From: Savitreella phatthalungensis
Lineage: Eukaryota
Reading direction: 5' to 3'
Assembly (NCBI GenBank): GCA_051599415.1
Contig: AP039693.1
Location: forward strand, 1-64,000
Length of the DNA stretch: 64,000 nt
Part shown: positions 2,374 to 17,210 of the stretch, piece by piece
Layout of the letters: each line of letters opens with the position of its first letter
How positions within the stretch are numbered: position 1 is the first letter of the stretch
Notes under the pieces: model-generated
Told to the model about the DNA's origin: nothing
The model's database searches: none
What the model saw: only the letters and a program-made list of their open reading frames with translations
Program-made: the position numbers and the translations under genes

Positions 2374-2600
2374 ATCCCTAACTGTTTGTTGACAGTTAGG
2401 GATGCCATGCAGCGTTTCATCCCTAACTTCATGGCTATAAGCTGGCTCCATTGAAACAGTTTGGGACTTTTGAACGGAATATATATAGTTTGGGATGTAG
2501 TGAGATTTGTCCTCCATTGTCAAATTACAGTTAGGGATGCCATGCAGCGTTCAACCCTTACAACTTAGTGCAGGCTGAAAAGCAAAACGTTAGGGATTCA
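2374..2600. repeat. Cluster of isolated TTAGGG/CCCTAA motifs with an inverted and a direct repeat
   Basis: Perfect 12-bp inverted repeat ATCCCTAACTGT (2374-2385) / ACAGTTAGGGAT (2392-2403). ACAGTTAGGGATGCCATGCAGCGTT occurs at 2392 and 2527. Further motifs lie at 2421 and 2590. Confidence 0.8.
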
Positions 2601-2877
2601 AAATGCTTCCAGTAAACAACTCAGCCTCTCATCAAAAGATCAATGCATTGGAATAAGTATGATTCGTGCATTGCATGGTGCAACCGTGGGATGATCATAT
2701 GAATTGCTTCTGTTAAGCCGGGCACACGGAGGGGAGAGAAGATAAGATTCTGCTACGTGTGGGAAATCACCTTCCTATGTGACTTCTGGAATGATCAATC
2801 GATCGATGGTCGATAGTGGCTGGTAGAGACAGTGTGATTGTGCGGTCATAATGGCATATGTTGATAACAGCTTTGGA

Positions 2878-4038
2878 CTATTTCTGCGTCACAAGCGACA
2901 AGAATGTATCCAAATGTGTATCATCTGGACAAAGCGACTTCAACCGTCCCTGCATGATCTGAGCAAGATGGCAGAGTTCGCGCTTAGAGTAGTTCAGCTC
3001 CAGGTGAGGCCCAGTGCGTGCATCAGCCAGAATAGATGATAGAGTCTCTGCATCGAGACTTTGCACACCTGCGCCATCGACGGAGCCTCGGACGCCGCGA
3101 TCTCCAACAGCCCACGCGACGACCTCAGGTCGAGCATCCGGGAAAAAAAGCCCCCAATCATCCGGATAAAGTTTCGAGCCAATGCCCGATCTCAGTAAAA
3201 TGATCTGAAGTTGCATTGTCAGATCCGAGTCTTCGGGCCATGTGTCGAGATCGACATCGACTTGCCAAGCGGGTAGATGTACGCCGCCAATTTTGATTTC
3301 TGAGCTCCATGTTCGATTCCACCTTAGCCATGCTTGCTTGACGTAGCACGTTGTGCTTTCTGCCACGAGATCTGACGGTCGTAAGCCTTCTCGATATCGC
3401 TCGCCAGACAAGTCTTTCATCGAAAGCGGTCGAAGCGCTTTGACATTGAATATCGCCGCAGAGGGATCGTTGGCCACGGCAAGGCGCACAACAATGTCTT
3501 CCACCAGCAATGAGGATCTGTGGAAGCAGTTGTGGGCTCGCGCAGCAACAACGAAAGATAAGACGTTTCGATGATTTTTCTGACCGACGCGGACCTGCAT
3601 AAGGTCGACAGTGAGCGTCAACGCACGCAGACACGGGAAAAATTTCGCATCTGTTTCTCGGAAATCGAGCTGACCGAGAGCCGCGGCGGTTTCGAGAGCG
3701 GCCAAAAGCGTCGGGTCGGCCACAAAGCCGTCGGGCAGGATCCAGGGTTCCCCTGGTTTGTCAATAGGCAAGAGACGATTCGCAGTCATCATAGCATCAA
3801 TCACGTCTGTCGAAAGCCCGCTTAACTCGACTCGTTCTTGACCTTGTTGCTCGACGTGATATTGTTCGGCAACTTCGCTACTCGCGGTTTTCGAGCGCGG
3901 TGGTGACGAGACGGGCGGCGGCGTCGTTGCAGGCAATTGCCCGTGCGAGGTCGCGACGGAGACCGACGCTTTAGTGCTCGGCCTATTGTCTGAGCTGCTA
4001 CTGGTTGGAGGCGAAGTGTAAAGTGAACCGCGAGGCAT
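2878..4038 (-). CDS. Uncharacterised subtelomeric protein, family A copy 1 (386 aa)
   Basis: Long ATG-initiated ORF with a Ser/Pro/Thr-rich N-terminus and a TATAAA about 60 bp upstream on the minus strand. Coding status is supported by amino-acid-level conservation with the paralogous fragments at 6920-8030. Confidence 0.8.
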   Translation of the reverse strand: MPRGSLYTSPPTSSSSDNRPSTKASVSVATSHGQLPATTPPPVSSPPRSKTASSEVAEQYHVEQQGQERVELSGLSTDVIDAMMTANRLLPIDKPGEPWILPDGFVADPTLLAALETAAALGQLDFRETDAKFFPCLRALTLTVDLMQVRVGQKNHRNVLSFVVAARAHNCFHRSSLLVEDIVVRLAVANDPSAAIFNVKALRPLSMKDLSGERYREGLRPSDLVAESTTCYVKQAWLRWNRTWSSEIKIGGVHLPAWQVDVDLDTWPEDSDLTMQLQIILLRSGIGSKLYPDDWGLFFPDARPEVVAWAVGDRGVRGSVDGAGVQSLDAETLSSILADARTGPHLELNYSKRELCHLAQIMQGRLKSLCPDDTHLDTFLSLVTQK

Positions 4039-4243
4039 TTGATCACCGGTCTTGTGTTACAAAGGACCAGCTAGTGTGCAGAATATGCTTCCATTTATAG
4101 CCACAGTCGTGCATTTGCAATCGCTAAAGCCACCAACCAAGTTCCATCATGCACTACATACACGAGTTCCACCATGACGTGCAGCTTTCTGAATTCGCAC
4201 GATTTTCAAGGCTCATGAATGGTCCTGTGTACGATTCGCCTCG

Positions 4244-5167
4244 ATGGCATTGGATACAGCATATCAGACCTTGAGTTCGGAAAATACAGCCGGACTTTTA
4301 CTCATCAGACTGCAACACAGTGCTCGTCTGACCATGAGCGCCGCGGACAGAAGGATTCGAAAGGAGATCATATTTGACGATGTAATCTATCCGCTCGGAC
4401 ACCAAGCGAATCTGCCATTGCGCTCGATGCATCAAAACTCAAGAGCTGAAACGGTTTCATCGGGTGTGCAGGCGATACGTCGCCATACCGCGGCAATTAA
4501 TTTACAACATTTGACTCTCGGCATGTCCCAGCCAGAGGATGTCCACAGCGGCATGGAACTACTGCGCATGCAGGTGTTTGAGCTAGTGCAAGCTGACCAA
4601 TTGCAAGGCCTGCAATTCAAGTTGAAGCTTCTCACGGACAAGCAGCGAGCCTCCACAAACAAGGGCCTACATGTGCTCTTCCGGTCGGTCGACGGTCTGG
4701 TGACGTACAATTACACCTCCACGGTTCCTGATGCCTCAATCGTGGAGACAAGCCAAGTCAACTATCAGCCTGGCTTCGCCAAATACGTTGTGGAAAACCG
4801 CACTCAAATGGCTGGGCGCGCATACAGCATGCCGCTTACTCCAGCGAGAACGAAGCTCACGAGCGACGTGTGGCAGGCTGGTTTCGAAGTACCAGAACAA
4901 TCTTCGGTGCCGACCGTCGCATCGCTCAACTTTCGAAGTCGTTGGGACCAGCCAGACATCGAAAAGCAAGATCTTGTGCAGCGCTTTGCGCTGCTAGTCG
5001 TGCGGGAATGCGCGGATGACGACGATTTGGCCGTATGGGATATGGGCAGCGACTCTCCGGAAGTGCACAAGCGCTCGAGTCTCGACACATTTCAATCTCG
5101 TCGACTCCTAATTGTCCGCCGTGATGCGGAAACAAAGCATTGCGATGTTCGGCTGGAGGCCGCCTAG
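4244..5167 (+). CDS. Uncharacterised subtelomeric protein, family B copy 1 (307 aa)
   Basis: Open ORF divergent from family A, 205 bp apart. Shares the motifs FDDxIYPLG, LHxLFRS, LTxDVWxxGF, ALLVVRECAD, WD..S..PE...RSSL and HCDVR with 8904-9868. Confidence 0.85.
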   Translation: MALDTAYQTLSSENTAGLLLIRLQHSARLTMSAADRRIRKEIIFDDVIYPLGHQANLPLRSMHQNSRAETVSSGVQAIRRHTAAINLQHLTLGMSQPEDVHSGMELLRMQVFELVQADQLQGLQFKLKLLTDKQRASTNKGLHVLFRSVDGLVTYNYTSTVPDASIVETSQVNYQPGFAKYVVENRTQMAGRAYSMPLTPARTKLTSDVWQAGFEVPEQSSVPTVASLNFRSRWDQPDIEKQDLVQRFALLVVRECADDDDLAVWDMGSDSPEVHKRSSLDTFQSRRLLIVRRDAETKHCDVRLEAA

Positions 5168-5336
5168 TTTAGAGTCGTCTTACACCCGCTCGATTGATGA
5201 ACTAATGCATGAATTATGAACAAAGTAGATATCGAGCTAAGGTTCTACATGGTCGCGAATCTCACTGAGCGAGAAGCGCAGACCTGTAGCACACGCGCTG
5301 TATCAAGCTCTGTCATCACGACATCGAGGAAGATTT

Positions 5337-6122
5337 TCATGAAACTTTCGGTTCATTGGGCACGGTCCCGGGAAGGCTGTCGGGGAATCCTAAAGGGCAG
5401 TCGCCAATGACGCGGGAAGGAATGCTCGATATCACAGTCACCATCGATGGCGACTCTTGCACACAACGTCCTTTAGTGCATGTCTCGCTCATCGCGATCA
5501 CGGTATATGTCAGTGCAGAGATTCGGTTTGGAGTATTGTGCATACGTCCGCGTGATTGGCGACCAGCCACATCCAGATAATGATCCTCCACAGTCACCTG
5601 GGAACGTCTCGGACGATTGCATCAACACGAGCAGAGCGACGCATGACAGGACTATGGCCCGGGGCGTGTTCAAGGGTCACATACCACATGTAGGACGTTT
5701 TATGCCAGAGTTGCGATTTGTCGTCTGAGTCTGCTGCAGACCCCTGTAAAAATATCGCGCCAGCCGAGCGAGTCATCGACTGAAATGAGCAAATGTAGGT
5801 CCTTGTGGCGGTAGCTGGAGCATGAGATAACGGTTCCCTGTTGTCTGTCCTGGCTCTTCATGGTCAAGCCCGGCACAAGCGACAAGCAAATCAGTTCAAA
5901 AGCGCACTCGGTCCATTCGGTTCGGAAGATCCGTTGTCGAGGCAGGCCAGAAGACGCGCTTTGGAGGTCTTGCACATGGCGGCCCACCCGGGCCAGATCT
6001 GTGGAAGGTGTAATTCCAATAGCTTTCAACTTGGGCGCTTCATCATTGTCGTGCCCGATGCGAACATCAAGCAAAACGATATTCGGATAGAGGTCGCCGA
6101 GTTGGAGGTCATCCAGTATCAT
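5337..6122 (-). pseudogene. Degenerate ORF fragments, possibly a distant family B paralog
   Basis: HKDLHLLISVDDSLGW resembles NKGLHVLFRSVDGLVTY and QRNLHILFRSDDGSPVW. The region is broken into several frames and similarity is weak. Confidence 0.3.
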
Positions 6123-6539
6123 GCATGACTATGATAACCGGATGGTGGGATACCGTGTAGTCAATCAATCACGTCGTCAAGTTGTCTTCTGTTAAAGGCT
6201 AGGTCGAGTGCCTTTGCTGAGAAATCGAATGAATCTGAGCATTCTAAATGGGACGTGGTCGTGCGCACCCCTTTGGACGAGTCAAAGACACGCAAGCTCT
6301 TCACGGCTCGTCAGCTGTGCTTCAATCCCCTTAAACTGCTTTCATCTGCCTTGGGTTGACCATCATTTGCCGCGATGTGGTCTCCGTGGCGGGCTTCGAG
6401 GGTACAGGGGGACTGACGCAATTGGCAAATGACACCGCTTGAATGCTCGAATCACGCCGAACAATGATAAGCCTGCGGTGTCAACAGTTGAAGAGACTTG
6501 AGCGCCCCCTAATCTCAGACGCGCGGCTGTCCATGTCAT

Positions 6540-6715
6540 GTCTCGCATTTGTGCACGATCAGGACGGCAAGCATCGAGCGATCTGGGACACGGGCAGCTG
6601 CGCGCCTGGAATTAGAGAACGCTCAAGTCTCTTCAAATATTGACCTCGCCGATACATTGCTATTCGACATAATTTGAACACCGAGCATTGCAATGTTCGA
6701 CTGGAAGTCGCCTAG
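6540..6715 (+). pseudogene. Family B C-terminal pseudogene fragment
   Basis: Translates DGKHRAIWDTGSCAPGIRERSSLFKY*PRRYIAIRHNLNTEHCNVRLEVA*, matching the family B C-terminus. There is an in-frame TGA where copy 2 has Arg. Confidence 0.85.
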
Positions 6716-7289
6716 CTTGACACGCGATCTGTCCCATGATGGTCCACATCTACCATAGCGGCATCCTGGATCGAACGAGGATCTTTGACAGAGAAATGCT
6801 AATTCAAGCTTGTTTGACGATAAGACCTTTCGACTGGAGGACGCTCAGCTTGGCTCATGTTAAACTAAAGCTCATGCGTACTGGTGAATCAGCGTGTGAT
6901 TCACAGTTGTGAATCGTAATCACGTATGCAGCATAGCAACTGTTCTATCCCCAAATATCAATGCCATATTGGAATGGGTATGAAGATTTGTAAAGCGCAT
7001 GAATGCGACTGCAATGCCCACATAAATTGGGCAGGGCTCATCGCAAGTCACGAACGATACCAATGCGTCCAGATGAGGATGCTCCGGGCAGATCGAGAGC
7101 AACCGGCCTTCCATGAGTTCCACCAAGTGGCAGAGCTCATGCTTCGAGTATGAGGTTGTAAAGCGAGAACCAGCACGGATATTGCGCAGGATGCTCGACA
7201 GATCCTCCGCGTCACGACTTTCAGCGCCAGCCGCATGTTGACATCCGCGAATAGCACGGTCTCCCGACAGCCCATGCGACGATGTTCCT

Positions 7290-7836
7290 TTGAAAAGCTC
7301 GTATTCCGCAAGTGTGCGGCAACGTGTTGATATCGATCCTGACCTGCCAGGCAGGTAGCGACGGACCGTCGATGCTGTATTCTGCTTGCCAAATTAGCTT
7401 GCGTGCCATCCGATATTTCTTGACGAAGCATGCTGCTTTGGCTGTCACTAAGTCAGAAGTACGCAAGTCGTCTCGATGTTGTCTGCGAGACAGATTTTTT
7501 GCTGAAATCGGCGTGACAGCTCTGATCTCAACCGCCACTTTGGATGACGCATCGGACATGGCGAGGCGCATGATCATGTCTTCTACCAGCCTTGCGGAGA
7601 TGTGGGAGTATCCGTGTGACCTCGCAGCGACGACGAAAGACAAGATTCTCCGATCATCATCTTCCTCCTCTATCTTATTGCCAGCCAAGGCAGCGTGCTT
7701 CGTCAAGAAATATCGGATGGCACGCGATCTACTTTGGCAAGCAGAAGTCAGCATCGGCGGTCCGTCGCTGCCTGCCTGGCAGGTCAGGATCGATATCAAC
7801 ACGTTGCGGCACACTTGCGGAAGGCGAGCTTTACAA
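7290..7836. repeat. Long imperfect inverted repeat, arms about 7290-7457 and 7668-7836
   Basis: TTCCGCAAGTGTG..GATATCGATCCTGACCTGCCAGGCAGG..TTCTTGACGAAGCA reappears as its reverse complement. The ORF track shows mirror-image peptides on both strands. Confidence 0.93.
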
Positions 7837-8026
7837 TGCGTCCAAAGAAGCGATGGACGCTATGCTGACTGCGGCTCTTCACATGGCGAGGCGCAGGACA
7901 ATGTCTTCTAGCAGCGTTGCGGAGATGTGGGTGCATTCGTAAGACCTCGCAGCGACGACGAAAGACAAGATTCCCAATCATCACCTTCCTCCTCTGACCT
8001 ATTGACAGCAGAGGCAGCGTGCTTCG
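7556..8026. repeat. Imperfect direct repeat of about 145 bp (7556-7702 and 7881-8026)
   Basis: ACATGGCGAGGCGCA..TTGCGGAGATGTGGG..GACCTCGCAGCGACGACGAAAGACAAGATT..GGCAGCGTGCTTCG occurs twice. Confidence 0.9.
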
Positions 8027-8903
8027 GACATGGATCAGAACCACTGACTCGGACCGATTGTTCAAAATCCTTTCGTGTCTGTTCGTACTTGTCTGTTAGC
8101 GTTCATGTCTATTCATGTTATTCGGCGAGCTCTGTCTGAGTGGTTCTGTGTCGTCTGGTTCGTGTTCACGTCGCTTGTTTTGTCGCTCTCGGGTCCTGCG
8201 GCTCTCCTCTGCGACAGTTGAAGAACTTTGCCTAGCTGCTCTTGACAAGGCAGTAGCAGAGGTTGCACACAAAAAGATTGCCTTATTGAGCACCCTTACA
8301 CTGACGTAGAATGCTCCAAAGCAGAGTACACAGTACCAGACAGACTGTACAATTGCTCAGGCCCAAGGCTATGTGCACTTGCCTCTCCTTGCCTGTATAG
8401 ATGAGGTCTGCATGTATAGCCTGGCTGAAAGACTTCCTTGATAACACGTATGCGGTAACACTTTGGCAGTGGGTCCTACGGCAAGCCAAAGGGGTAAGAA
8501 TTGACCCTGTACCTTGCATAGAGACACGAGAACAGAATTTCCTGCCTAAAGCGCTTCAGAAGATCTTGCTGAGGAGTATTGAGCAGCCTGCTGAAGATAC
8601 CTCATGTAGGAGGCATCGTAGAATTTGTGTTTCAGATCGATCAATTGACTACTCAATCAATAATTGACTCCCTGACTTTCGAAATAGCTATCTTCCCATG
8701 TGTCTAAATCATCAGAGATCGACCAGGTGCTCATTTGAGCACTCAATGACTTCAGTGAAGTCCAGCAAAATCAGATCGACCGAATGATCAATCTTTGTTC
8801 TCCAGTCTGCGAACTTATCGTCGATCTGGTCTGAGTTTGTATCTAGCAAAGGCGAGATCACCCATGTCAAACAACGGGGGCTTTTAGACCGTCTTGCTAT
8901 AAA

Positions 8904-9868
8904 ATGACGGTCGCTATCTTCCTATGCGGTACTCAGACGACACTTGGCATCCTCTCGGTTTTTGCCTCAACAGCGTTGAATAAGCCATATCGGACATTGA
9001 GACCGGGTCTACAGCCGGTAGCCGGAATTCTCGCTCGTGTGGGCAAGACTAAAAGACACGTCGTCTTTGACGACATGATCTATCCGCTTGGACAACGAGC
9101 AGATCTGCCGGTGAGGGTCATTCCTTCCGTACGCTCGTTCACTGGCGCAGAGGCCACACTACGCGAAATGATTCTTAGCCTTTCGCAGCCCCCCACAGTG
9201 GACCTCGAAGGTCAGCAAGCCGCGAGCATTGCTCGCGGCATACGTATCGAGGATGGCCCGGAAAACCTTTACGTAAGGGTCTCGGAAACCATGAAACTAG
9301 ACGGGCATTCAGACCTGCTCTTCCGAGCAAAGCTATGCACGAGCGGCAGAGCTGTGACTCTGCAGAGAAATCTGCATATTCTTTTCGCTCTGATGACGGC
9401 TCACCGGTATGGACAGAGCCTTCTGCGGTGAGTGGTGCGAAGACAAGCCAGACCGCCGCGCAGGTCGGATTCTCGCACTGGGCAGGGGTAAACCTCGCGC
9501 GGACCGGCGCCAGTACATCAACAATGCCCATGATTCTGCCGAAGTCAGATTTGACCGATGATGTATGGGCAGGATTCCGAATTCCGGAGTCAAGTGAAGT
9601 CGCGACCCTGACGCGAGCGAAATTCCGGGCTCCGTCGCTCGACCTTTCGAGCGACCAACAAAGCGCTATGCGGCGCTACGCGCTGCTGGTCGTGCGCGAA
9701 TGCGCCGATGGCGAGAACCTAGCAATCTGGGACACAGCCAGCCGCGCGCCAGAGATCAGAGAACGGTCAAGTCTGGCAAGCTACCGTCCGCGACGTTACA
9801 TTGTTGTCCGGCGGGACTCAAGCGCCGAGCACTGCGATGTTCGGGTTGAAGACGCCGATACAACTTAG
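8904..9868 (+). CDS. Family B copy 2 (about 321 aa), split by one frameshift in a T-run at 9382-9385, probably an assembly error
   Basis: ORFs 8904-9431 and 9335-9868 together align end to end with 4244-5167. Adding one T restores LHILFRSDDG. Confidence 0.8.
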
Positions 9869-10004
9869 ACCCATGACCGTACCTGACTGATGAATGAACG
9901 TATAAATTATGAGAACTTGAAGAACAAAGCCTGGATCCTCCCGATGATTAGTTGCGATGTACTCAAACAGACGCGCAGACCTTGGGACGGCCTTTCTCTG
10001 TTTC

Positions 10005-10167
10005 TTGCTCTGGTCCGGCGAGCGAAGCATACCTGGGCTGTAGCTGCTGCCGAACTGGGCGAGAGCTAGTTCGAATCCCTTCGATTGCTCTTGTCCGGCG
10101 AGCGAAGCATACCAGGGCTGTAGCTGCTGCCGAACTGGTCGAGAGGTAGTTCGAATCCCTTTGATTG
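10005..10167. repeat. 80-bp tandem duplication containing a B-box-like GTTCGAATCC
   Basis: Units start at 10005 and 10085 and are near-identical. GTTCGAATCC lies at 10069 and 10149. Confidence 0.9.
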
Positions 10168-10269
10168 AGTCGGAATTTGAACTGTAATGCTGGCAGTTGC
10201 GCACGTCCGGAAGCGTACAGCGCAAGGCAATGACGTACCGCCGGGTCGGAACTAATCATAGCTACGTTC

Positions 10270-10365
10270 AATCTTTGGTCGGATTGAGGTTCATCATGTT
10301 CCGCGTGACACTGATTGGTGTCGGCATCGCGCCGCAGAACGGAGTATCGGCGAAATGGTGTCATG
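10270..10365 (-). pseudogene. Short family B C-terminal remnant
   Basis: RRYSVLRRDADTNQCH compared with RRLLIVRRDAETKHCD and RRYIVVRRDSSAEHCD in the two long copies. Confidence 0.45.
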
Positions 10366-10458
10366 GCGAAGCCGTGGACGCCCGGAATTGTCGCGTGAGG
10401 CTGGAGAGTCTATAGCTGGAGATCATCCCTGACTCAAACAAGTAGATGGCATTCGCTC

Positions 10459-11894
10459 CTACGCCCTAGCGCTGTCGTCCTCGATCTGATATCGCTCGGC
10501 AAGCCACTTGCTGAACGTGACAGAGGGCTCATCGACATAGCGCTGGAATACATCTGCTGCGTACAAACAGAGTGGCAACAGCACTGCCAGTGCGATGAAC
10601 GCGGCGACTTCCTTCAAGAAAGGATTTGCTTCTGCAAACGTGCCGTTGCCGTAGTAGTATTCCCACTTACCAACGCCGAAGAGCACCCACAGCCCAGGTA
10701 TGACGACGCCGCCAATGCAATAGAGAATAGGACCATGCACGAGATATAAGGAGAAGGAGATTTTGCCGAGATACTGGTTTATCTCGAGTTCGAAGAAGCG
10801 ACGGGCCCAGGCAAGACGGGATATGGCGTAAATCGTGATCATGGATCCAACGGTGAGGCAGACGCGGCGCCTGTCTCCGTCGCCTGTCAAATCGCCTGAA
10901 ACGTCGTCTTTCCCCCGTCCGGAATCCAGAGTTCCAGGAACTTCCATATATAGCCCCATCCGAGGGCATTTGCCTGGTGACCATCGACGGGACAGCTCAT
11001 CAGAAAGCCACCCAATACAAGCATGGGCGTGTCCCACAGAGATGTCTCCTCCTCACGACCGTATTGATGATCGGCCATCCAGACGCCGAAAGCGAACAGT
11101 GCTACCCAAGGCTTGAGCCGGTACACGCAGTAAGCGGTCCAGCCTAGCAGAAAGTAGTGCCGTGCGTCTTTCCGCAGCCGAGCAATGAAAATTAGCATCA
11201 TGTATACCCACAGCGAGCCATGCAGCTCTACGTTGAGCGTCCAGGTGTGCGGCTGATATTTTGTCCAGATTACGAAATCCCACGAGTACGGATCTGCCAG
11301 GTAGAGGACGTCATGCCACCAATCATATATCTGCTCGAGCAGCGTTGCTTTACGCTCAAAAGCCGGGAAATACATGAGCCGTTTGTCGTAGAATCCGAAG
11401 CGAATCAGCCAGAAGGTCACGACGCAAATGGCGAGTGCCGGCAGCATAAGACGTGGAAGCCGCCGCACGATTGAGGAAGAGATGTTCTTCAGAAGTGCAT
11501 CATACCTCCGAGTGTTGATGTAGTCGATCGGTCGATAGGCCAGGGCGAAGCCAGAAACGATGAAGAAGATGCAGACCATCGAATGGCCAGAGCTGAAGAG
11601 CAGTCTGACAAAGGGTAGCTTGACCCAATCGTAATCCTCGGGCGTCTGGCCGTAGCCATAATTACCCCTGTTGTGTACGTTGTCGCTCCAATGGTGAATG
11701 ACAACGAGAAACGCAGCAAGTCCGCGAATTCCATCCAAGTAAGCTGTCGGCCGGAGATCATCCCTTCTTTTCAGGAGTGAGTCCGACCTGAGCATGACTG
11801 TGAACTCGGGCCTCAGGTCAACAGGTAATCGTTTCTCGTAAGGTTCAAGCGATTGTAACCACGAGGACGTGCTTCGCCGCGACTTTGACTTCAT
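10459..11894 (-). CDS. Acyltransferase family 3 (OafA-like) membrane O-acyltransferase, with a frameshift at the C5 run 10912-10916
   Basis: Motifs TAYLDGIRGLAAFLVVIHH, FFIVSGF, RRLPRL and HTWTLNVE in one frame and YLGKISFSLYLVHGP in the next. Multiple hydrophobic helices. One extra G joins the two frames. Confidence 0.88.
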
Positions 11895-12220
11895 CGTAGA
11901 CTTATGTGCACGCGCACAGACCACTCCAAGCTTCTTTCCCCGAGATTTTAGGCCGATCTTTTTGAAAAGCGATTAGTATGGCGGTTCACCTAAACGGGAA
12001 TTCTAGCGAGCGTGATCGGCTCTTGGCCACTGACACATTCCCCTCACCTGGACCCTAGCTAGATCGCCTGAAGAAAAAACACAAACAAGGAGTACGCACA
12101 CTAACACCAGTACACATACACACCCACATCTACACACGACCCTCTTTTTCCCCGACACTCATCTCCTGAGTTATCTACGCAGGCAATATAAGGACTACTG
12201 CTCGCGCTTACTCGAAGAAG

Positions 12221-13543
12221 ATGGAGAAGGGAATGGACGCGATGAATCTATGGCGCGGCTTGCTGTCGACTGCACGCCGGCGCATTTCTTCTCTTGCCAT
12301 TATCGCCATCGTCTTTATTTGCATCACGCAACTGACGTCCGTTCATGTTCAGGCCTCTTTGAAGAGACCTGCTGTTCCCGGTTTCTTTGGTAAGACCTCT
12401 CAGCGCAACGTCGAACCTCACAAGACCCCGACGTTCCCGAAGAAGATATGGCAAACGTGGAAGGTAGATGCGCTAAACCTGGAAGAGCGTGAGTTCGAGC
12501 GTATCGGCTCCTGGTTGGCTAAGAACCCCACATACCAATACGAGCTTCTCACGGACACGAACGCTGAAGAGTATGTCAAGTTTCACTTCGGACCTGGAGG
12601 ACTTGACAAGCCATACATTCTCAATACCTTCCTCGACATGACGGACCACATCCTGAGAGCTGACCTCCTGCGATACATGGTGATGTACGTAGAAGGCGGC
12701 GTGTACACCGATATCGACACTGTCGCGTTGCGTCCCGTATCTCAGTGGATTCCGAGACACTACGATCAGCGCGATATTTCGATGGTTATCGGCGTAGAAG
12801 TGGACGAACCAGACTGGGCCGAGTATCACAAGGACTTCGCTCAGACCACTGGTTTCTGCCAATGGACCTTCATGTGTAAGCCGGGCCACCCTGTGATGCT
12901 GCGATTGCTTGAGCATGCCATCTCGCAGGTCCACCGCTTGTCGCAGCTTCAGAAGTGCCGAGTCTCCGAGATCAAGCCATCGTTTCGCGAGGTGCTGAAT
13001 ATCACCGGCCCTGCTGCTTTCACCAACGCCATATTGGGCTACATGAATCGTGACATTGGCGGCACCGACGAGCGCACTGGCAAGAAGAAGGGAAAGATCA
13101 CCTGGGACGAGTTTCACGCGATCACAGAGTCGGTCGTGGTAGAAGACATTCTGGTGCTCACTGTGGAGGCATTCGCTGCTAGCTCGCCCCACTCAGACTC
13201 TGGCAGTATCAACTCGAACCACGCCCTTGTCCAGCATCTTTACGGTGCCAGTAATTGGCCCGAAGGTCATCCGAGGGCAGACCGCGAGCTGGAGGACTGC
13301 AATTATGATGAGAAGTGTATCGCTGAGTACAAGGCCAAGCAGGTTGAGAAGGGTCTCACTGACTCATCGGTGGTCGGTGGTCCAATCGTGGAGCTTTGCA
13401 ATGGCGACCAGACCTGTATCGATAACTACATCAAATCACAGAACAACGATCGCGAGGAGAAGCCAGCTGTGGGCCCAGATTCCGATAGCGGCGTGTCCGA
13501 TTTTATGGCAGAAGCCATGAAGGATCAGTCCGAGCGACAATAA
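12221..13543 (+). CDS. GT32 (Och1/Hoc1-like) alpha-1,6-mannosyltransferase
   Basis: N-terminal type II anchor, FPKKIWQTWK, RADLLRYMVMYVEGGVYTDID (DxD), FCQWTF..PGHP and TGPAAFT. Confidence 0.92.
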   Translation: MEKGMDAMNLWRGLLSTARRRISSLAIIAIVFICITQLTSVHVQASLKRPAVPGFFGKTSQRNVEPHKTPTFPKKIWQTWKVDALNLEEREFERIGSWLAKNPTYQYELLTDTNAEEYVKFHFGPGGLDKPYILNTFLDMTDHILRADLLRYMVMYVEGGVYTDIDTVALRPVSQWIPRHYDQRDISMVIGVEVDEPDWAEYHKDFAQTTGFCQWTFMCKPGHPVMLRLLEHAISQVHRLSQLQKCRVSEIKPSFREVLNITGPAAFTNAILGYMNRDIGGTDERTGKKKGKITWDEFHAITESVVVEDILVLTVEAFAASSPHSDSGSINSNHALVQHLYGASNWPEGHPRADRELEDCNYDEKCIAEYKAKQVEKGLTDSSVVGGPIVELCNGDQTCIDNYIKSQNNDREEKPAVGPDSDSGVSDFMAEAMKDQSERQ

Positions 13544-13620
13544 ACTACATGACATACTTTAGTAATGGACAGCCAGAGATATTTATAGACCTTATCAGGC
13601 ACAACGTATTTTGTGAACTT

Positions 13621-15705
13621 ATGCCGTCTCAAAAGAAGCTTGAGTTTCTCGCGCGCAAGCGCAAGCTCAAGGGCGACGTCAAGGAGGAGGTGTCTGATGA
13701 GCCTGCAGCAAAAAAAGTGCGTGCGGCGCGGCCAACACAGAAAGAAATCGCAGCCGAGACGAACACGCTCTTCGTGCGCAATCTGGCGTTCGACACAGAT
13801 GATGCAGCCCTCGCATCCTTCTTCGGTCAACACGCGCCCGTCAAGCACACTGTCGTAGTGAAGGACAAGACGACGAAAGCCAGCCTTGGCTACGGCTTCG
13901 TATCATTTGCTAGCGCAGAAGATGCGGCTCTTGCCAAAGGTGCTATTGCACAAGAGAAGCTCGGTGATCGTATCATTAAGGTTGATTTTGCGCAACGAAG
14001 GCAGCGCGACATCGACTCCAGTGGAGTCGCTGATCAGCCGCAGTCGATGTCTCATCCGGGAACAACTACAGCAAGACATCCGACGACAGAGGTAATCGTT
14101 CGCAATCTCAGTTTCGGTATCAGAAAGCCGGATGACTTGATCAAGCATTTCGTAAAGTTCGGAGCCATCAAGGAATGCCGCATCCCGCGCGGTCAGGGAC
14201 AGAAGATGCTCGGCTTTGCATTCGTGAGATACAAGCGTCGTGCTTGCGCCGAAGCCGCGATCGTAGGGCTCAATGGGAAAGAGATTGAGGGTCGATTAGT
14301 CGCTGTTGACTGGTCCGAGCAGCGCAGTGAGGTCAAGACTGAAGAAGTTTCTGCAGAAGGAAAAGGCATCCCGTCAATCAAGCGAGAGGAAGGAGAAGAG
14401 GAAGCTAACGAAGAAGCAGAAGGAGAAGAAGAAGAGGAGGAAGAGGTGGACGACGACGACGACGATGATGAGAGAGCCTTTGGCTTGATTGCCGAAGCCG
14501 ACGACCTGAGCGACGCAGAACAAGAAGGCACCAGTGATGTTGAGGACAATCGTATGGATGGAGACGAGGACCCGGTCGAGGATGAAGATTCTGAAACAGG
14601 TGAGCAAGCCACCCGCGAGCAGCACAACGACTATACATCGACGCTTTTTGTCCGCAATCTGCTATTCGAAACGACAGAGGACTCTATAAAGGCTCACTTC
14701 CGCAGGTTTGGGCCGATCAGATATTGTAAGCTTGTGCGGGATTTGGCGACGGAGCGCTCGCGCGGAACTGCATTTGTACGCTTCGTACATGAGGCGGACG
14801 CTCAGGCCTGTCTGACGATGCACAAGAATGCTACACGGGCGAATAGCGCAAAGGTCAACAGCTTACTTCTTCAGGACAATGAGTTCACACTTGACGGTCG
14901 GATGCTGGATGTACAGCAGTCGCTACCGCGGGAAGACGCCGCAAAGGCGGTAGAACGTAACGAGGCAAACAAGCGAGCATCGGAGGGGAAGGGTATTGAT
15001 CGGCGCAGAATGTTCCTGCTCGAGGAAGGTCGCTTGGATGATAGCTCGCTTTCTGACGCTGACAAACTTCTCCGAACGCAATCGTATAACCAGCGCAAGA
15101 AGATGCTTGCCTCCAATCCGAGCCTGCACGTTTCATTGACGCGGCTCAGCGTCCGTAACCTGCCCCGCCACATCACAGGTCCTGAGCTAAAGTATCTGGC
15201 TCGGCAAGCCGTTGTTGGATTTGGCCAAGATGCTAAGGCTGGGAAGCGAGCGTCAATTTCGAAGGATGAGAGAGCACGCGATGGAGCCGCTGCACAACAG
15301 CGGACTGCTGCGATTACACAGGCCAAGATCGTGGTCGAGAAAGACGGCGGGCGATCTCGCGGCTATGGCTTCATCGAGTGCTCTTCGCACCGGTACGCTC
15401 TTATGTGTCTGCGCTGGCTCAACGGCAGAGTGCTTGGAGGCGACATCGATTTGGTCGAGTTGAAGAACGCGCACCCGCCGAAAAAGCAGGCCATCAAAGC
15501 TGACGAGAACGATCGCAAACGCAGGCTGATTGTTGAATTTGCAATTGAGAACATCGCAGTCGTCAAGCGTCGGCAGGAGCGCGAGCGTGTCTCTCGAGAG
15601 CCCAAGCTGGTCGAGGCCACAGAGAATGTACCCAAAGAGGTTGCTCACAATCCGCTCGGACGAATTTTGTCTCGTCGTCGCCAGCAAAAGCGAGCAAAAA
15701 GATAA
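13621..15705 (+). CDS. NOP4: Nucleolar four-RRM protein Nop4/RBM28
   Basis: Four RRMs (TLFVRNL, GYGFVSF, GFAFVRY, GTAFVRF, GYGFIE), an acidic linker, NPSLHVSLTRLSVRNLPR and RRLIVEFAIEN. ATG 13621 is preferred over 13549. Confidence 0.93.
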   Translation: MPSQKKLEFLARKRKLKGDVKEEVSDEPAAKKVRAARPTQKEIAAETNTLFVRNLAFDTDDAALASFFGQHAPVKHTVVVKDKTTKASLGYGFVSFASAEDAALAKGAIAQEKLGDRIIKVDFAQRRQRDIDSSGVADQPQSMSHPGTTTARHPTTEVIVRNLSFGIRKPDDLIKHFVKFGAIKECRIPRGQGQKMLGFAFVRYKRRACAEAAIVGLNGKEIEGRLVAVDWSEQRSEVKTEEVSAEGKGIPSIKREEGEEEANEEAEGEEEEEEEVDDDDDDDERAFGLIAEADDLSDAEQEGTSDVEDNRMDGDEDPVEDEDSETGEQATREQHNDYTSTLFVRNLLFETTEDSIKAHFRRFGPIRYCKLVRDLATERSRGTAFVRFVHEADAQACLTMHKNATRANSAKVNSLLLQDNEFTLDGRMLDVQQSLPREDAAKAVERNEANKRASEGKGIDRRRMFLLEEGRLDDSSLSDADKLLRTQSYNQRKKMLASNPSLHVSLTRLSVRNLPRHITGPELKYLARQAVVGFGQDAKAGKRASISKDERARDGAAAQQRTAAITQAKIVVEKDGGRSRGYGFIECSSHRYALMCLRWLNGRVLGGDIDLVELKNAHPPKKQAIKADENDRKRRLIVEFAIENIAVVKRRQERERVSREPKLVEATENVPKEVAHNPLGRILSRRRQQKRAKR

Positions 15706-15773
15706 ATTTAGTTAAAATATTCCCCGCTAAAAATGGTTGACCGGGCTCTCCACAAAGACACGCACGCGATCGC

Positions 15774-17210
15774 ATGTCATTGCCGGGTAGTGCGGCTTCG
15801 GCACCTAGCAGGTTCCATCGCCTCACGCGCTTCGCGTTGTCCAGCCTGAAACCTGGAACAGTATGGCGCGAAGTAGGCGATGATTGTCGTCTTGGCAAGC
15901 TCCGCGAAACTGCCTGGTTGGACGGTCTACGCGGTTATGCCTCATTTCTAGTCTACATCACCCATCATCTCCTATGGGCCCACCGTGGTGGCCTGGAGCT
16001 CGCATACGGCTATGACGGCAAATATCAGTTCATTACATTGCCCTTCGTGCGGACCTTCTTCACAGGCTCTCATGCAGCTGTCTCGGTCTTTTTCATCATC
16101 AGTGGCTATGTGCTGACTTACAAACCTACATTGCTTGCCAGGGAGGGGCGTCTGCTCGAAGCCAACGATGCGCTGGCGAGCTCGGTGTTTCGACGAGCTA
16201 TTCGACTCTACATTCCCGTGCTTGGCGTGAGCTGGACTTGCATCTGCTTGTATTACATGACTGGCGTCTTTCCACACTCGCCCGCCGACTTCTCCCGATC
16301 GATTTTCAGCGAGCTCTACCGTTCCTGGTATGAATTCTGGGTATGGTCCTATCCGATGCGCACTAAGTCAACGGGCTATTGGACAGATTACGGCTTTATA
16401 CTGCCCAACTACTACAGATATAATCTGCATACGTGGACCATTCCTGTCGAGGTACAGGGCTCGATGGTCGTTTTCCTGTTGGCTCTAGCAACGAGCAGGA
16501 TGATACCGAAATATAGGATTGGTCTTCTGGCGGTGCTTTCCTACTACTTTCTTGTCCGTGGCGGTTGGTTCTACAGCAGCTTTGTGGCCGGCATGGCGCT
16601 GGCCGAGGTCGACCAAATTGCAAAGAAGGAGCCTTTCTGGCCCAAGCATCGTCAAAGGCCACGTAATCTATTGACCTGGGCTTCGCTCGTCCTAGGTCTA
16701 TATCTTGCCGGCATGCCTGGACTAGGCTTCGATACGATGACCCCGGCGGAGCTTGCGGAACAGCCAGGCTGGTCACTAGTGGCTAAGATCGTTCCGGACA
16801 TTTACTCGGACATCTCTGTCTTTGTATTGAGCATCGCTGCCGTCTTCCTGGTCATCGGCATTTCTCACATCCCGAGAATGAAGGCCGTGTTCGAGATGCG
16901 CGTCATGCAATATCTGGGCCGCAATTCTTTCGCATTCTATCTGGTTCATGGCCCTGTCTTGAGCATCATCGGGGATCGCGTCTACCACATTGTCGGTCGT
17001 GAGCATGGCATGCCAGGAGACATGGAGGAGTGGACAAATTTATTGCCTCTCCCGGATTGGGGTCCGAGCGGCCTGGAGATTGACTTCATCTTGCCCCATA
17101 TCGTGCTTCTCCCTGTCACACTTTACCTATCTGACGTATGCACGAAACTTTGGGATGAGCCAAGTGTACGGATTGCGCAATGGAGCTACAACAAGGTTAG
17201 AGGTCGCTGA
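15774..17210 (+). CDS. Acyltransferase family 3 (OafA-like) membrane O-acyltransferase
   Basis: TAWLDGLRGYASFLVYITH, FFIISGYVL, FRRAIRLY, HTWTIPVE and YLGRNSFAFYLVHGP. Confidence 0.92.
   Translation: MSLPGSAASAPSRFHRLTRFALSSLKPGTVWREVGDDCRLGKLRETAWLDGLRGYASFLVYITHHLLWAHRGGLELAYGYDGKYQFITLPFVRTFFTGSHAAVSVFFIISGYVLTYKPTLLAREGRLLEANDALASSVFRRAIRLYIPVLGVSWTCICLYYMTGVFPHSPADFSRSIFSELYRSWYEFWVWSYPMRTKSTGYWTDYGFILPNYYRYNLHTWTIPVEVQGSMVVFLLALATSRMIPKYRIGLLAVLSYYFLVRGGWFYSSFVAGMALAEVDQIAKKEPFWPKHRQRPRNLLTWASLVLGLYLAGMPGLGFDTMTPAELAEQPGWSLVAKIVPDIYSDISVFVLSIAAVFLVIGISHIPRMKAVFEMRVMQYLGRNSFAFYLVHGPVLSIIGDRVYHIVGREHGMPGDMEEWTNLLPLPDWGPSGLEIDFILPHIVLLPVTLYLSDVCTKLWDEPSVRIAQWSYNKVRGR

Follow-up and report, generated by a model that had tools for sequence, protein, structure and literature searches.

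In yeasts, as outlined in PMC2876123, pseudogenes cluster in the subtelomeres and stem mostly from species-specific duplications. Here we describe a locus that resembles such clusters at one chromosome end of Savitreella phatthalungensis, a phylloplane yeast of the Taphrinales that is introduced as anamorphic in PMC8877625. The first 64,000 nucleotides (nt) of contig AP039693.1 (assembly GCA_051599415.1, forward strand), referred to below as the window, were analysed for two gene families, A and B, all copies of which lie within positions 2878-10358. A divergent pair of intact genes (A1 and B1) stands next to a second unit in which both genes are damaged (psiA and B2), and partial copies of the B 3' end lie around them. 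The best reading of this locus, and in our judgement a probable one, is that it represents a lineage-restricted orphan gene block of two unrelated genes undergoing normal subtelomeric duplication and decay.

Like the yeast subtelomeric duplicates and pseudogene clusters portrayed in PMC2876123, A and B lie within 10 kb of a telomere, form a small block duplicated locally, have more dead copies than live ones, include duplicated pieces of a pseudogene and have no relatives in other species. Unlike the families considered in that account, they are without any known function or domain and come from a single chromosome end, and unlike the budding yeasts treated there their host belongs to the Taphrinomycotina (PMC2876123). 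Proximity to the telomere, local paralogues and dead copies beside intact ones are the features of a subtelomeric birth-and-death family. The features of taxonomically restricted genes were also found: no relative was detected outside the lineage (by an exhaustive search for A and a word-index search for B), and the open reading frames (ORFs) are coding as judged by their length, their codons and a proportion of nonsynonymous differences (pN) below that of synonymous differences (pS).

In Schizosaccharomyces pombe, the wtf poison-antidote meiotic drivers encode membrane proteins and form a family scattered across the genome. Two-gene systems such as Neurospora rfk-1/rsk and Caenorhabditis elegans peel-1/zeel-1 are reportedly of restricted distribution, some of them with adjacent genes, and are said to be defined by killing and rescue. 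A and B share with wtf, as characterised in PMC5478261, restriction to a lineage, fast turnover and many pseudogenes, within the same subphylum. Whereas a single wtf gene yields both poison and antidote, A and B are two separate predicted soluble proteins at one locus. The multi-pass membrane character of wtf proteins is missing from A1 and B1, in which the highest 19-residue Kyte-Doolittle mean is 1.17 and 0.75, respectively, and no wtf-related sequence appeared among the matches of the A-profile or B searches, assuming that wtf is present in the collections. In contrast to rfk-1/rsk and peel-1/zeel-1, A and B are known here from their sequence alone, and they have no sequence or domain similarity to those systems.

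The outer pair is intact. A1 (2878-4038, minus strand) is an ORF of 386 amino acids (aa) and the sole full-length member of orphan family A, while B1 (4244-5167, plus strand) is a 307-aa ORF of orphan family B. A preliminary description of the window had placed the two head to head and 205 bp apart, and both the ORFs and the spacer were confirmed. This spacer, 4039-4243 from ATG to ATG, is presumed to be a shared divergent promoter, and A1 and B1 would probably be transcribed from it. The two proteins share no homology (BLASTP best E 9). A1 begins with a stretch of ~70 aa rich in serine, threonine and proline, and its identical 386-aa sequence is present in the protein collection. The database product for B1 is shorter, 214 aa starting at Met94 (P0003); however, the alignment with B2 extends over B1 residues 2-93 (region 4244-4523), where the motif FDDxIYPLG is strongly conserved, and the 307-aa model is therefore better supported than the 214-aa call.

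Several observations indicate that A1 and B1 are genes rather than fortuitous frames. The longest ORF obtained in 300 shuffles of positions 2600-10600 was 252 aa (median 126), shorter than either gene, which excludes a chance origin. With a codon log-odds table built from 13 well-supported window genes, the in-frame scores were +0.117 bits per codon for A1 and +0.149 for B1, in line with window ORFs outside the training set (0.084-0.126), and each of the remaining five frames scored below zero. Both parts of B2 and both pieces of psiA were likewise positive in the proposed frame only. In agreement with the preliminary description, no recognisable domain, transmembrane segment or signal peptide came to light: neither A1 nor B1 has a transmembrane segment or hydrophobic N-terminus by the hydropathy values above, A1 has no signal peptide, and Pfam gave nothing at threshold. 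A1 and B1 would thus encode soluble intracellular proteins and are presumed still to function.

The second copy of B had been described as apparently intact, such that B would have been retained twice, and this did not withstand closer analysis. A tblastn search of the window with B1 returned two plus-strand matches, 8973-9386 and 9329-9856 (39% over 180 aa, E 4e-36), which fall in two ORFs in different frames (8904-9431 and 9335-9868). The N-terminal part of B2 (8970-9386, plus strand) is homologous to B1 residues 1-150 and has an in-frame ATG upstream at 8904; the C-terminal part (9386-9868, plus strand) is in the -1 frame relative to it. The alignment of B1 and B2 is collinear over the full length, with the frame changing at base 9386 in a T run (CTTTTC), and the offset between the two copies is 4693 nt at an N-terminal anchor and 4692 nt at a C-terminal one, giving a net length difference of 1 nt.

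To judge whether the frameshift could be an assembly slip, we used contigs from two DNA runs, X1 and X2, which are of one sample and possibly the source of the window. The contigs spanning B2 (X1, 7944-14403; X2, 7943-11955) differ from the window by a single indel, located at 10911, and by none in B2. At 10911 the contigs of both runs carry one extra C in a C-run, and this base fuses two overlapping minus-strand Acyl_transf_3 ORFs (10459-10959 and 10887-11894) into a single 478-aa ORF, about as long as the stop-to-stop frame (489 aa) of a paralogue at 15741-17207. The window assembly thus probably has a homopolymer error at this position, and because the X1 and X2 contigs correct it they provide a real check on base-level errors. 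As far as can be told, the B2 frameshift is not an assembly slip. A third run under the same organism label, in which 2 of 30 bins were covered by 19-nt pieces, was unfit as a comparison strain.

The public gene model hides this lesion. The B2 product in the database (P0004, 312 aa) reads seven codons in the wrong frame and then removes 9407-9432 as a 26-nt GT..AG intron, thereby losing residues whose match to B1 is in the other frame. Mean intron lengths of 78, 61 and 81 nt are given for three Taphrinomycotina in PMC3648899, so that the annotated intron has about one third of the mean length in these relatives. It is likely an annotation artefact that bridges the frameshift.

The A partner of B2 is dead: it is truncated and rearranged. 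That an A pseudogene lies on the minus strand had been noted before, and tblastn with A1 located its pieces within 7046-7974, with minus-strand matches at 7664-7314 (42% over 117 aa, E 5e-26), 7264-7046 (53% over 73 aa, E 2e-20) and 7971-7882. The C-terminal piece of psiA (7046-7267, minus strand) corresponds to A1 residues ~311-384 at 53% identity, and the middle piece (7278-7664, minus strand) to residues ~153-280 at 40% identity; the two are in different frames and ~30 residues are missing between them. The middle piece has been copied in both orientations. An inverted duplicate in a fold-back arrangement occupies 7645-7824 on the plus strand, where inverted repeat I1 (7290-7457 and 7669-7836) has arms of 168 nt that are 90% complementary and 211 nt apart, and an ORF running across this duplicate has been annotated as a 117-aa protein (P0005). 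Partial duplication in direct orientation has left copies of 87-89%, with a second direct copy of psiA residues ~158-188 (direct repeat D2, 89%) at 7882-7974 on the minus strand. Stops interrupt all three minus frames across 7975-8600, showing that the N-terminal ~150 codons and the start codon of psiA are gone. Neither gene of the second unit has therefore escaped damage, which leaves A1 and B1 as the only intact copies.

Fragments of the B 3' end complete the inventory. The clearest is a plus-strand remnant at 6554-6712 (tblastn match 6563-6712, E 1.8e-9) with an internal stop at 6641-6643, which agrees with a remnant proposed earlier at 6540-6715; it is closer to B2 than to B1, with 70.7% nucleotide identity to 9707-9856. 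Beside it an inverted remnant of the B C-terminal region, also with an internal stop (6433-6537, minus strand; tblastn E 0.004), forms the left arm of a palindrome (inverted repeat I2: 6444-6537 and 6587-6680, 71% complementary, 49 nt between arms). The sequences of B1, B2 and these two 6.4-6.7 kb remnants, and no others, served to build a hidden Markov model (HMM) for the B C-terminus, which was run on 2310 six-frame pieces. It identified a diverged plus-strand remnant at 5955-6098 (profile positions 24-69, E 4.8e-5); a possible remnant at 5337-6122 had been suggested before, and its place was right, while its strand and extent were not, as only 5955-6098 on the plus strand is B-like. The remaining proposal, at about 10270-10365, corresponds to a marginal inverted match to the extreme B C-terminus at 10290-10358 (minus strand; score 12.6, E 0.013, against 0.15 for the best noise), which is only probable as a true B remnant. 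In all, three or four of the B fragments contain stops. A seventh candidate at about 8479-8601 (minus strand), prompted by a 23-nt inverted match, proved to be noise (HMM E 13). The rest of the window (~53 kb) gave no significant A or B match by tblastn, iterated six-frame search or HMM.

Comparison of the two units indicates how the block arose. The paralogous proteins align at 38-53% identity although their DNA similarity is nearly gone, and pN is 0.29-0.43 against a pS of 0.57-0.81, near saturation (74-157 codons per comparison). The claim that the copies evolved as proteins was thereby upheld. Length-weighted values are ~0.34 for A1/psiA and ~0.39 for B1/B2 in pN, and ~0.66 and ~0.69 in pS. 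A1/psiA and B1/B2 are collinear, in the same order and orientation at an offset of ~4.1-4.7 kb, and this collinearity together with the similar divergence of A and B indicates that one duplication copied both genes together. Moreover, the long open stretches and the protein similarity that persist despite saturated silent sites indicate that for most of the period after that duplication both units were maintained as genes.

These data are consistent with the following history. An ancestral A-B unit would have been copied once, as a whole, ~4.7 kb inward, and both units would have stayed working genes until synonymous sites were saturated while the proteins remained recognisable. The inner unit would then have died comparatively recently, with psiA losing its 5' half and being rearranged by two duplications, one inverted (fold-back) and one direct, and B2 taking a net 1-nt deletion. 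Fragments of the B 3' end lie in either orientation, one pair of them as a palindrome, and may reflect further breakage and fold-back repair; the inverted psiA duplicate and the B palindrome would be scars of such repair. Both the order of events and the repair mechanisms are our reconstruction from the arrangement of the copies.

Searches for relatives of A and B returned essentially the locus itself. Pfam and NCBIfam gave nothing at threshold for either family and PDB profile searches were likewise empty; a weak Pfam match of A1 to DUF7668 (E 0.12, 13.3 bits against a cutoff of 27) is noise. Family A was searched exhaustively by profile (HMMER, 1,835,955,588 representatives) and family B by word index only. 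The A profile gave four matches at E<=0.001: A1, the window ORF inside psiA and two tandem-repeat proteins (P0006 and P0007). The latter were rejected as A relatives, as they share one 34-56-residue A1 stretch per unit, with pairwise E values of 0.014 and 8e-5, and their repeats inflate the summed score. When 5.8 billion proteins were searched by word index, the hits were confined to products of the window itself (1 of 8000 scored candidates for A1, 1 of 1413 for B1, and 2 of 8000 for the B profile, both from this locus). One match of the B-profile search, the hypothetical protein PYCC9005_001763 of Savitreella phatthalungensis, lies on the same 685,724-bp contig. Metagenome scans yielded no relatives among 64 and 105 pattern matches, and scans of viral contigs yielded none.

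Within the genome, A1, B1 and B2 each lacked a further copy at >=80% likeness in the run contigs, and X1 read depth (reads counted from 80% likeness) was flat over 3181-7247 and 8410-14219. The genus Savitreella is monotypic according to the taxonomy database, and the nearest genus is presented in PMC13531029 as a separate, weakly similar branch. The literature found on Savitreella and PYCC 9005 is taxonomy only and mentions neither gene. Families A and B are thus new, with nothing alike on record, and orphan genes are to be expected in a monotypic genus without sequenced close relatives.

The subtelomeric position attributed to the locus was borne out. A telomere repeat array occupies 61-230 (period 6, 27.5 copies, 98% matches), consisting of perfect CCCTAA repeats at 61-185 followed by variant CCCTGA-type units to ~230; the start of the window is therefore a chromosome end, and the A/B locus lies 2.6-10 kb from it. 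Inward of ~10.5 kb the window contains ordinary genes, with 21 of the 24 long ORFs scanned carrying Pfam families, among them acyltransferases, a glycosyltransferase, transaldolase, Rsm22, Tim44, polyubiquitin, GatB and DNA polymerase B. The GC content and codon usage of the A/B block match those of the host.

A number of points weigh against a simple history of duplication and decay. The window holds at least one homopolymer error and X1 and X2 may derive from the same sample, which limits confirmation of the B2 frameshift to this strain. The ratio of nonsynonymous to synonymous substitution (dN/dS) is only rough, being drawn from protein-guided alignments of saturated sequences. Expression and function of A1 and B1 are presumed rather than observed. 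The search for family B used a word index and was not exhaustive, and as one chromosome end was examined, diverged or unannotated copies may be present at others. A ~91%-alike copy of the 160 nt just 3' of A1 (2710-2869) lies at the end of a 10-kb contig that comes from another part of this genome, and a 132-nt contig carries a ~91%-alike copy as well. Lastly, long purifying selection on two units that each held both genes is also expected of a functionally coupled pair.

Such coupling had been proposed in the preliminary description, which took A and B for an obligate functional pair, perhaps a toxin and its antidote, on the grounds that their orientation recurs and that B is intact twice. 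Both arguments fail. The second unit does repeat the order and strands of the first, as stated, but a single co-duplication explains this, and the recurring head-to-head arrangement is neither independent evidence nor a sign of repeated selection; B2, as shown above, is frameshifted. The spacing of A1 and B1 is also ordinary, because, of six divergent pairs tallied in the window, four are separated by 205-326 bp. The three others with short spacers (238, 246 and 326 bp) resemble A1-B1 in this respect and differ from the A-B unit in being unrelated housekeeping or metabolic genes that were not duplicated as units. A complex prediction for A1(70-386) with B1 returned 'no answer' (score 0.00), which is evidence neither way. 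On the sequence evidence gathered, the proposal of an obligate or toxin-antidote pair is unsupported, though not refuted. Most likely A and B are paired as a side effect of genome compactness and of how large the duplicated segment was, and are not functionally coupled.

A milder form of coupling deserves consideration, namely that A1 and B1 form an ordinary pair, co-regulated and non-selfish, in which the two products work jointly (perhaps as two subunits, or in two steps of one lineage-specific process) and selection acts on the pairing. The 205-bp spacer common to both genes, purifying selection on both in both units long after the duplication, and the fact that neither gene is full-length without the other in the window would all fit. 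Yet the units come from one duplication, which means that co-retention has been observed once; four B fragments, one of them marginal, have no A-derived partners; short divergent spacers are common in the window; and there are no relatives in which conserved pairing could be seen. We consider this explanation unlikely.

It is less likely still that no copy is functional any longer, with A1 and B1 being recently dead or fortuitous ORFs in which stops have not yet appeared. Every other copy in the block is broken, and structure-based methods gave little. In the ESM Atlas the best matches of A1 were unnamed bacterial clusters (0.90-0.91) with recognition below the useful range, and B1 had no usable match; the recognition scores for the A1 and B1 searches were 1329 and 1687, against the 2300 reached by 91 of 100 known-family proteins. 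AlphaFold2 models based on the paralogue alignments were unusable, with a mean predicted local distance difference test score (pLDDT) of 42.1 and a predicted template modelling score (pTM) of 0.32 for A, and 35.9 and 0.24 for B. Models of this quality are no more than alignments of only 3-5 rows would be expected to give, however, and the ORF lengths beyond all 300 shuffles, the frame-specific codon signal and a pN well below pS speak for genes that have been maintained.

The proposal of a selfish element, whether a toxin/antidote, spore-killer or allorecognition cassette in which duplication and decay record an arms race, seems to us very improbable. Circumstantially, A and B are both orphans, adjacent and divergent, and they form a multi-copy locus with pseudogenes at a fast-changing chromosome end; known drivers such as wtf are also lineage-restricted and rich in pseudogenes, as depicted in PMC5478261. 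Against this, no transmembrane segments, nuclease, kinase or other domain was found in A or B, dN/dS is below 1, and the genes occupy a single locus rather than a dispersed family. The description of the species as anamorphic in PMC8877625 lowers the prior for meiotic drive, and orphan status is expected anyway in a monotypic lineage. We would accordingly give only the faintest credence to the idea that this chromosome end of an early-diverging ascomycete yeast harbours a previously unseen two-protein selfish or self/non-self cassette. Just as speculative would be its elaboration, in which one soluble orphan protein is harmful without its divergently co-transcribed partner and the inner unit and B fragments are relics of earlier rounds of duplication and escape. 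Finally, A and B might belong to a degenerate mobile element, as its cargo or its own genes, be it a transposon, an integrated plasmid or a virus that was inserted repeatedly near the telomere. This could account for several partial copies in both orientations within 8 kb and for the lack of cellular relatives, but it is the least credible alternative. The units are not bracketed by terminal inverted or long terminal repeats, the domain searches showed no transposase, reverse transcriptase, integrase or capsid, the block is host-like in GC content and codon usage, viral contigs hold no relatives, and there are neither extra copies at >=80% likeness in the genome contigs nor annotated paralogues elsewhere.

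Read as an orphan gene block in subtelomeric duplication and decay, the locus is a small and clean example of chromosome ends making and destroying genes: an intact pair adjoins a copy caught mid-decay, the putative fold-back scars are still readable, and the public gene model masks the B2 frameshift with an implausibly short intron. Were the products of A1 and B1 to depend on each other, they would offer a tractable two-gene system in a small-genome yeast; none of the evidence gathered points in this direction.

Further repeats were observed in and around the block. Bases 1-60, ahead of the telomere repeats, are non-telomeric and resemble what we take to be a nanopore adapter and barcode left untrimmed at the contig end. 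Telomere-associated minisatellites with 82-, 57- and 28-nt units lie at 560-846, and a 13-nt unit is repeated ~12.8 times at 2204-2373 within a minisatellite region spanning 2146-2373. The stretch 8146-8216 is one at which several run contigs from other locations join or leave the window, and the 7829-8409 bin shows elevated depth, so that a short multi-copy or low-complexity segment seems to lie within the dead A-B spacer. In the interval from B2 to the marginal B remnant, an 80-nt unit occurs twice in tandem (10005-10164, 94%); by eye it appeared tRNA-like, and ARAGORN and Rfam gave no match. Just inside the orphan block, at 10459-17207, a DXD glycosyltransferase and an RRM protein are encoded between two Acyl_transf_3 genes, an arrangement that may represent another local duplication.

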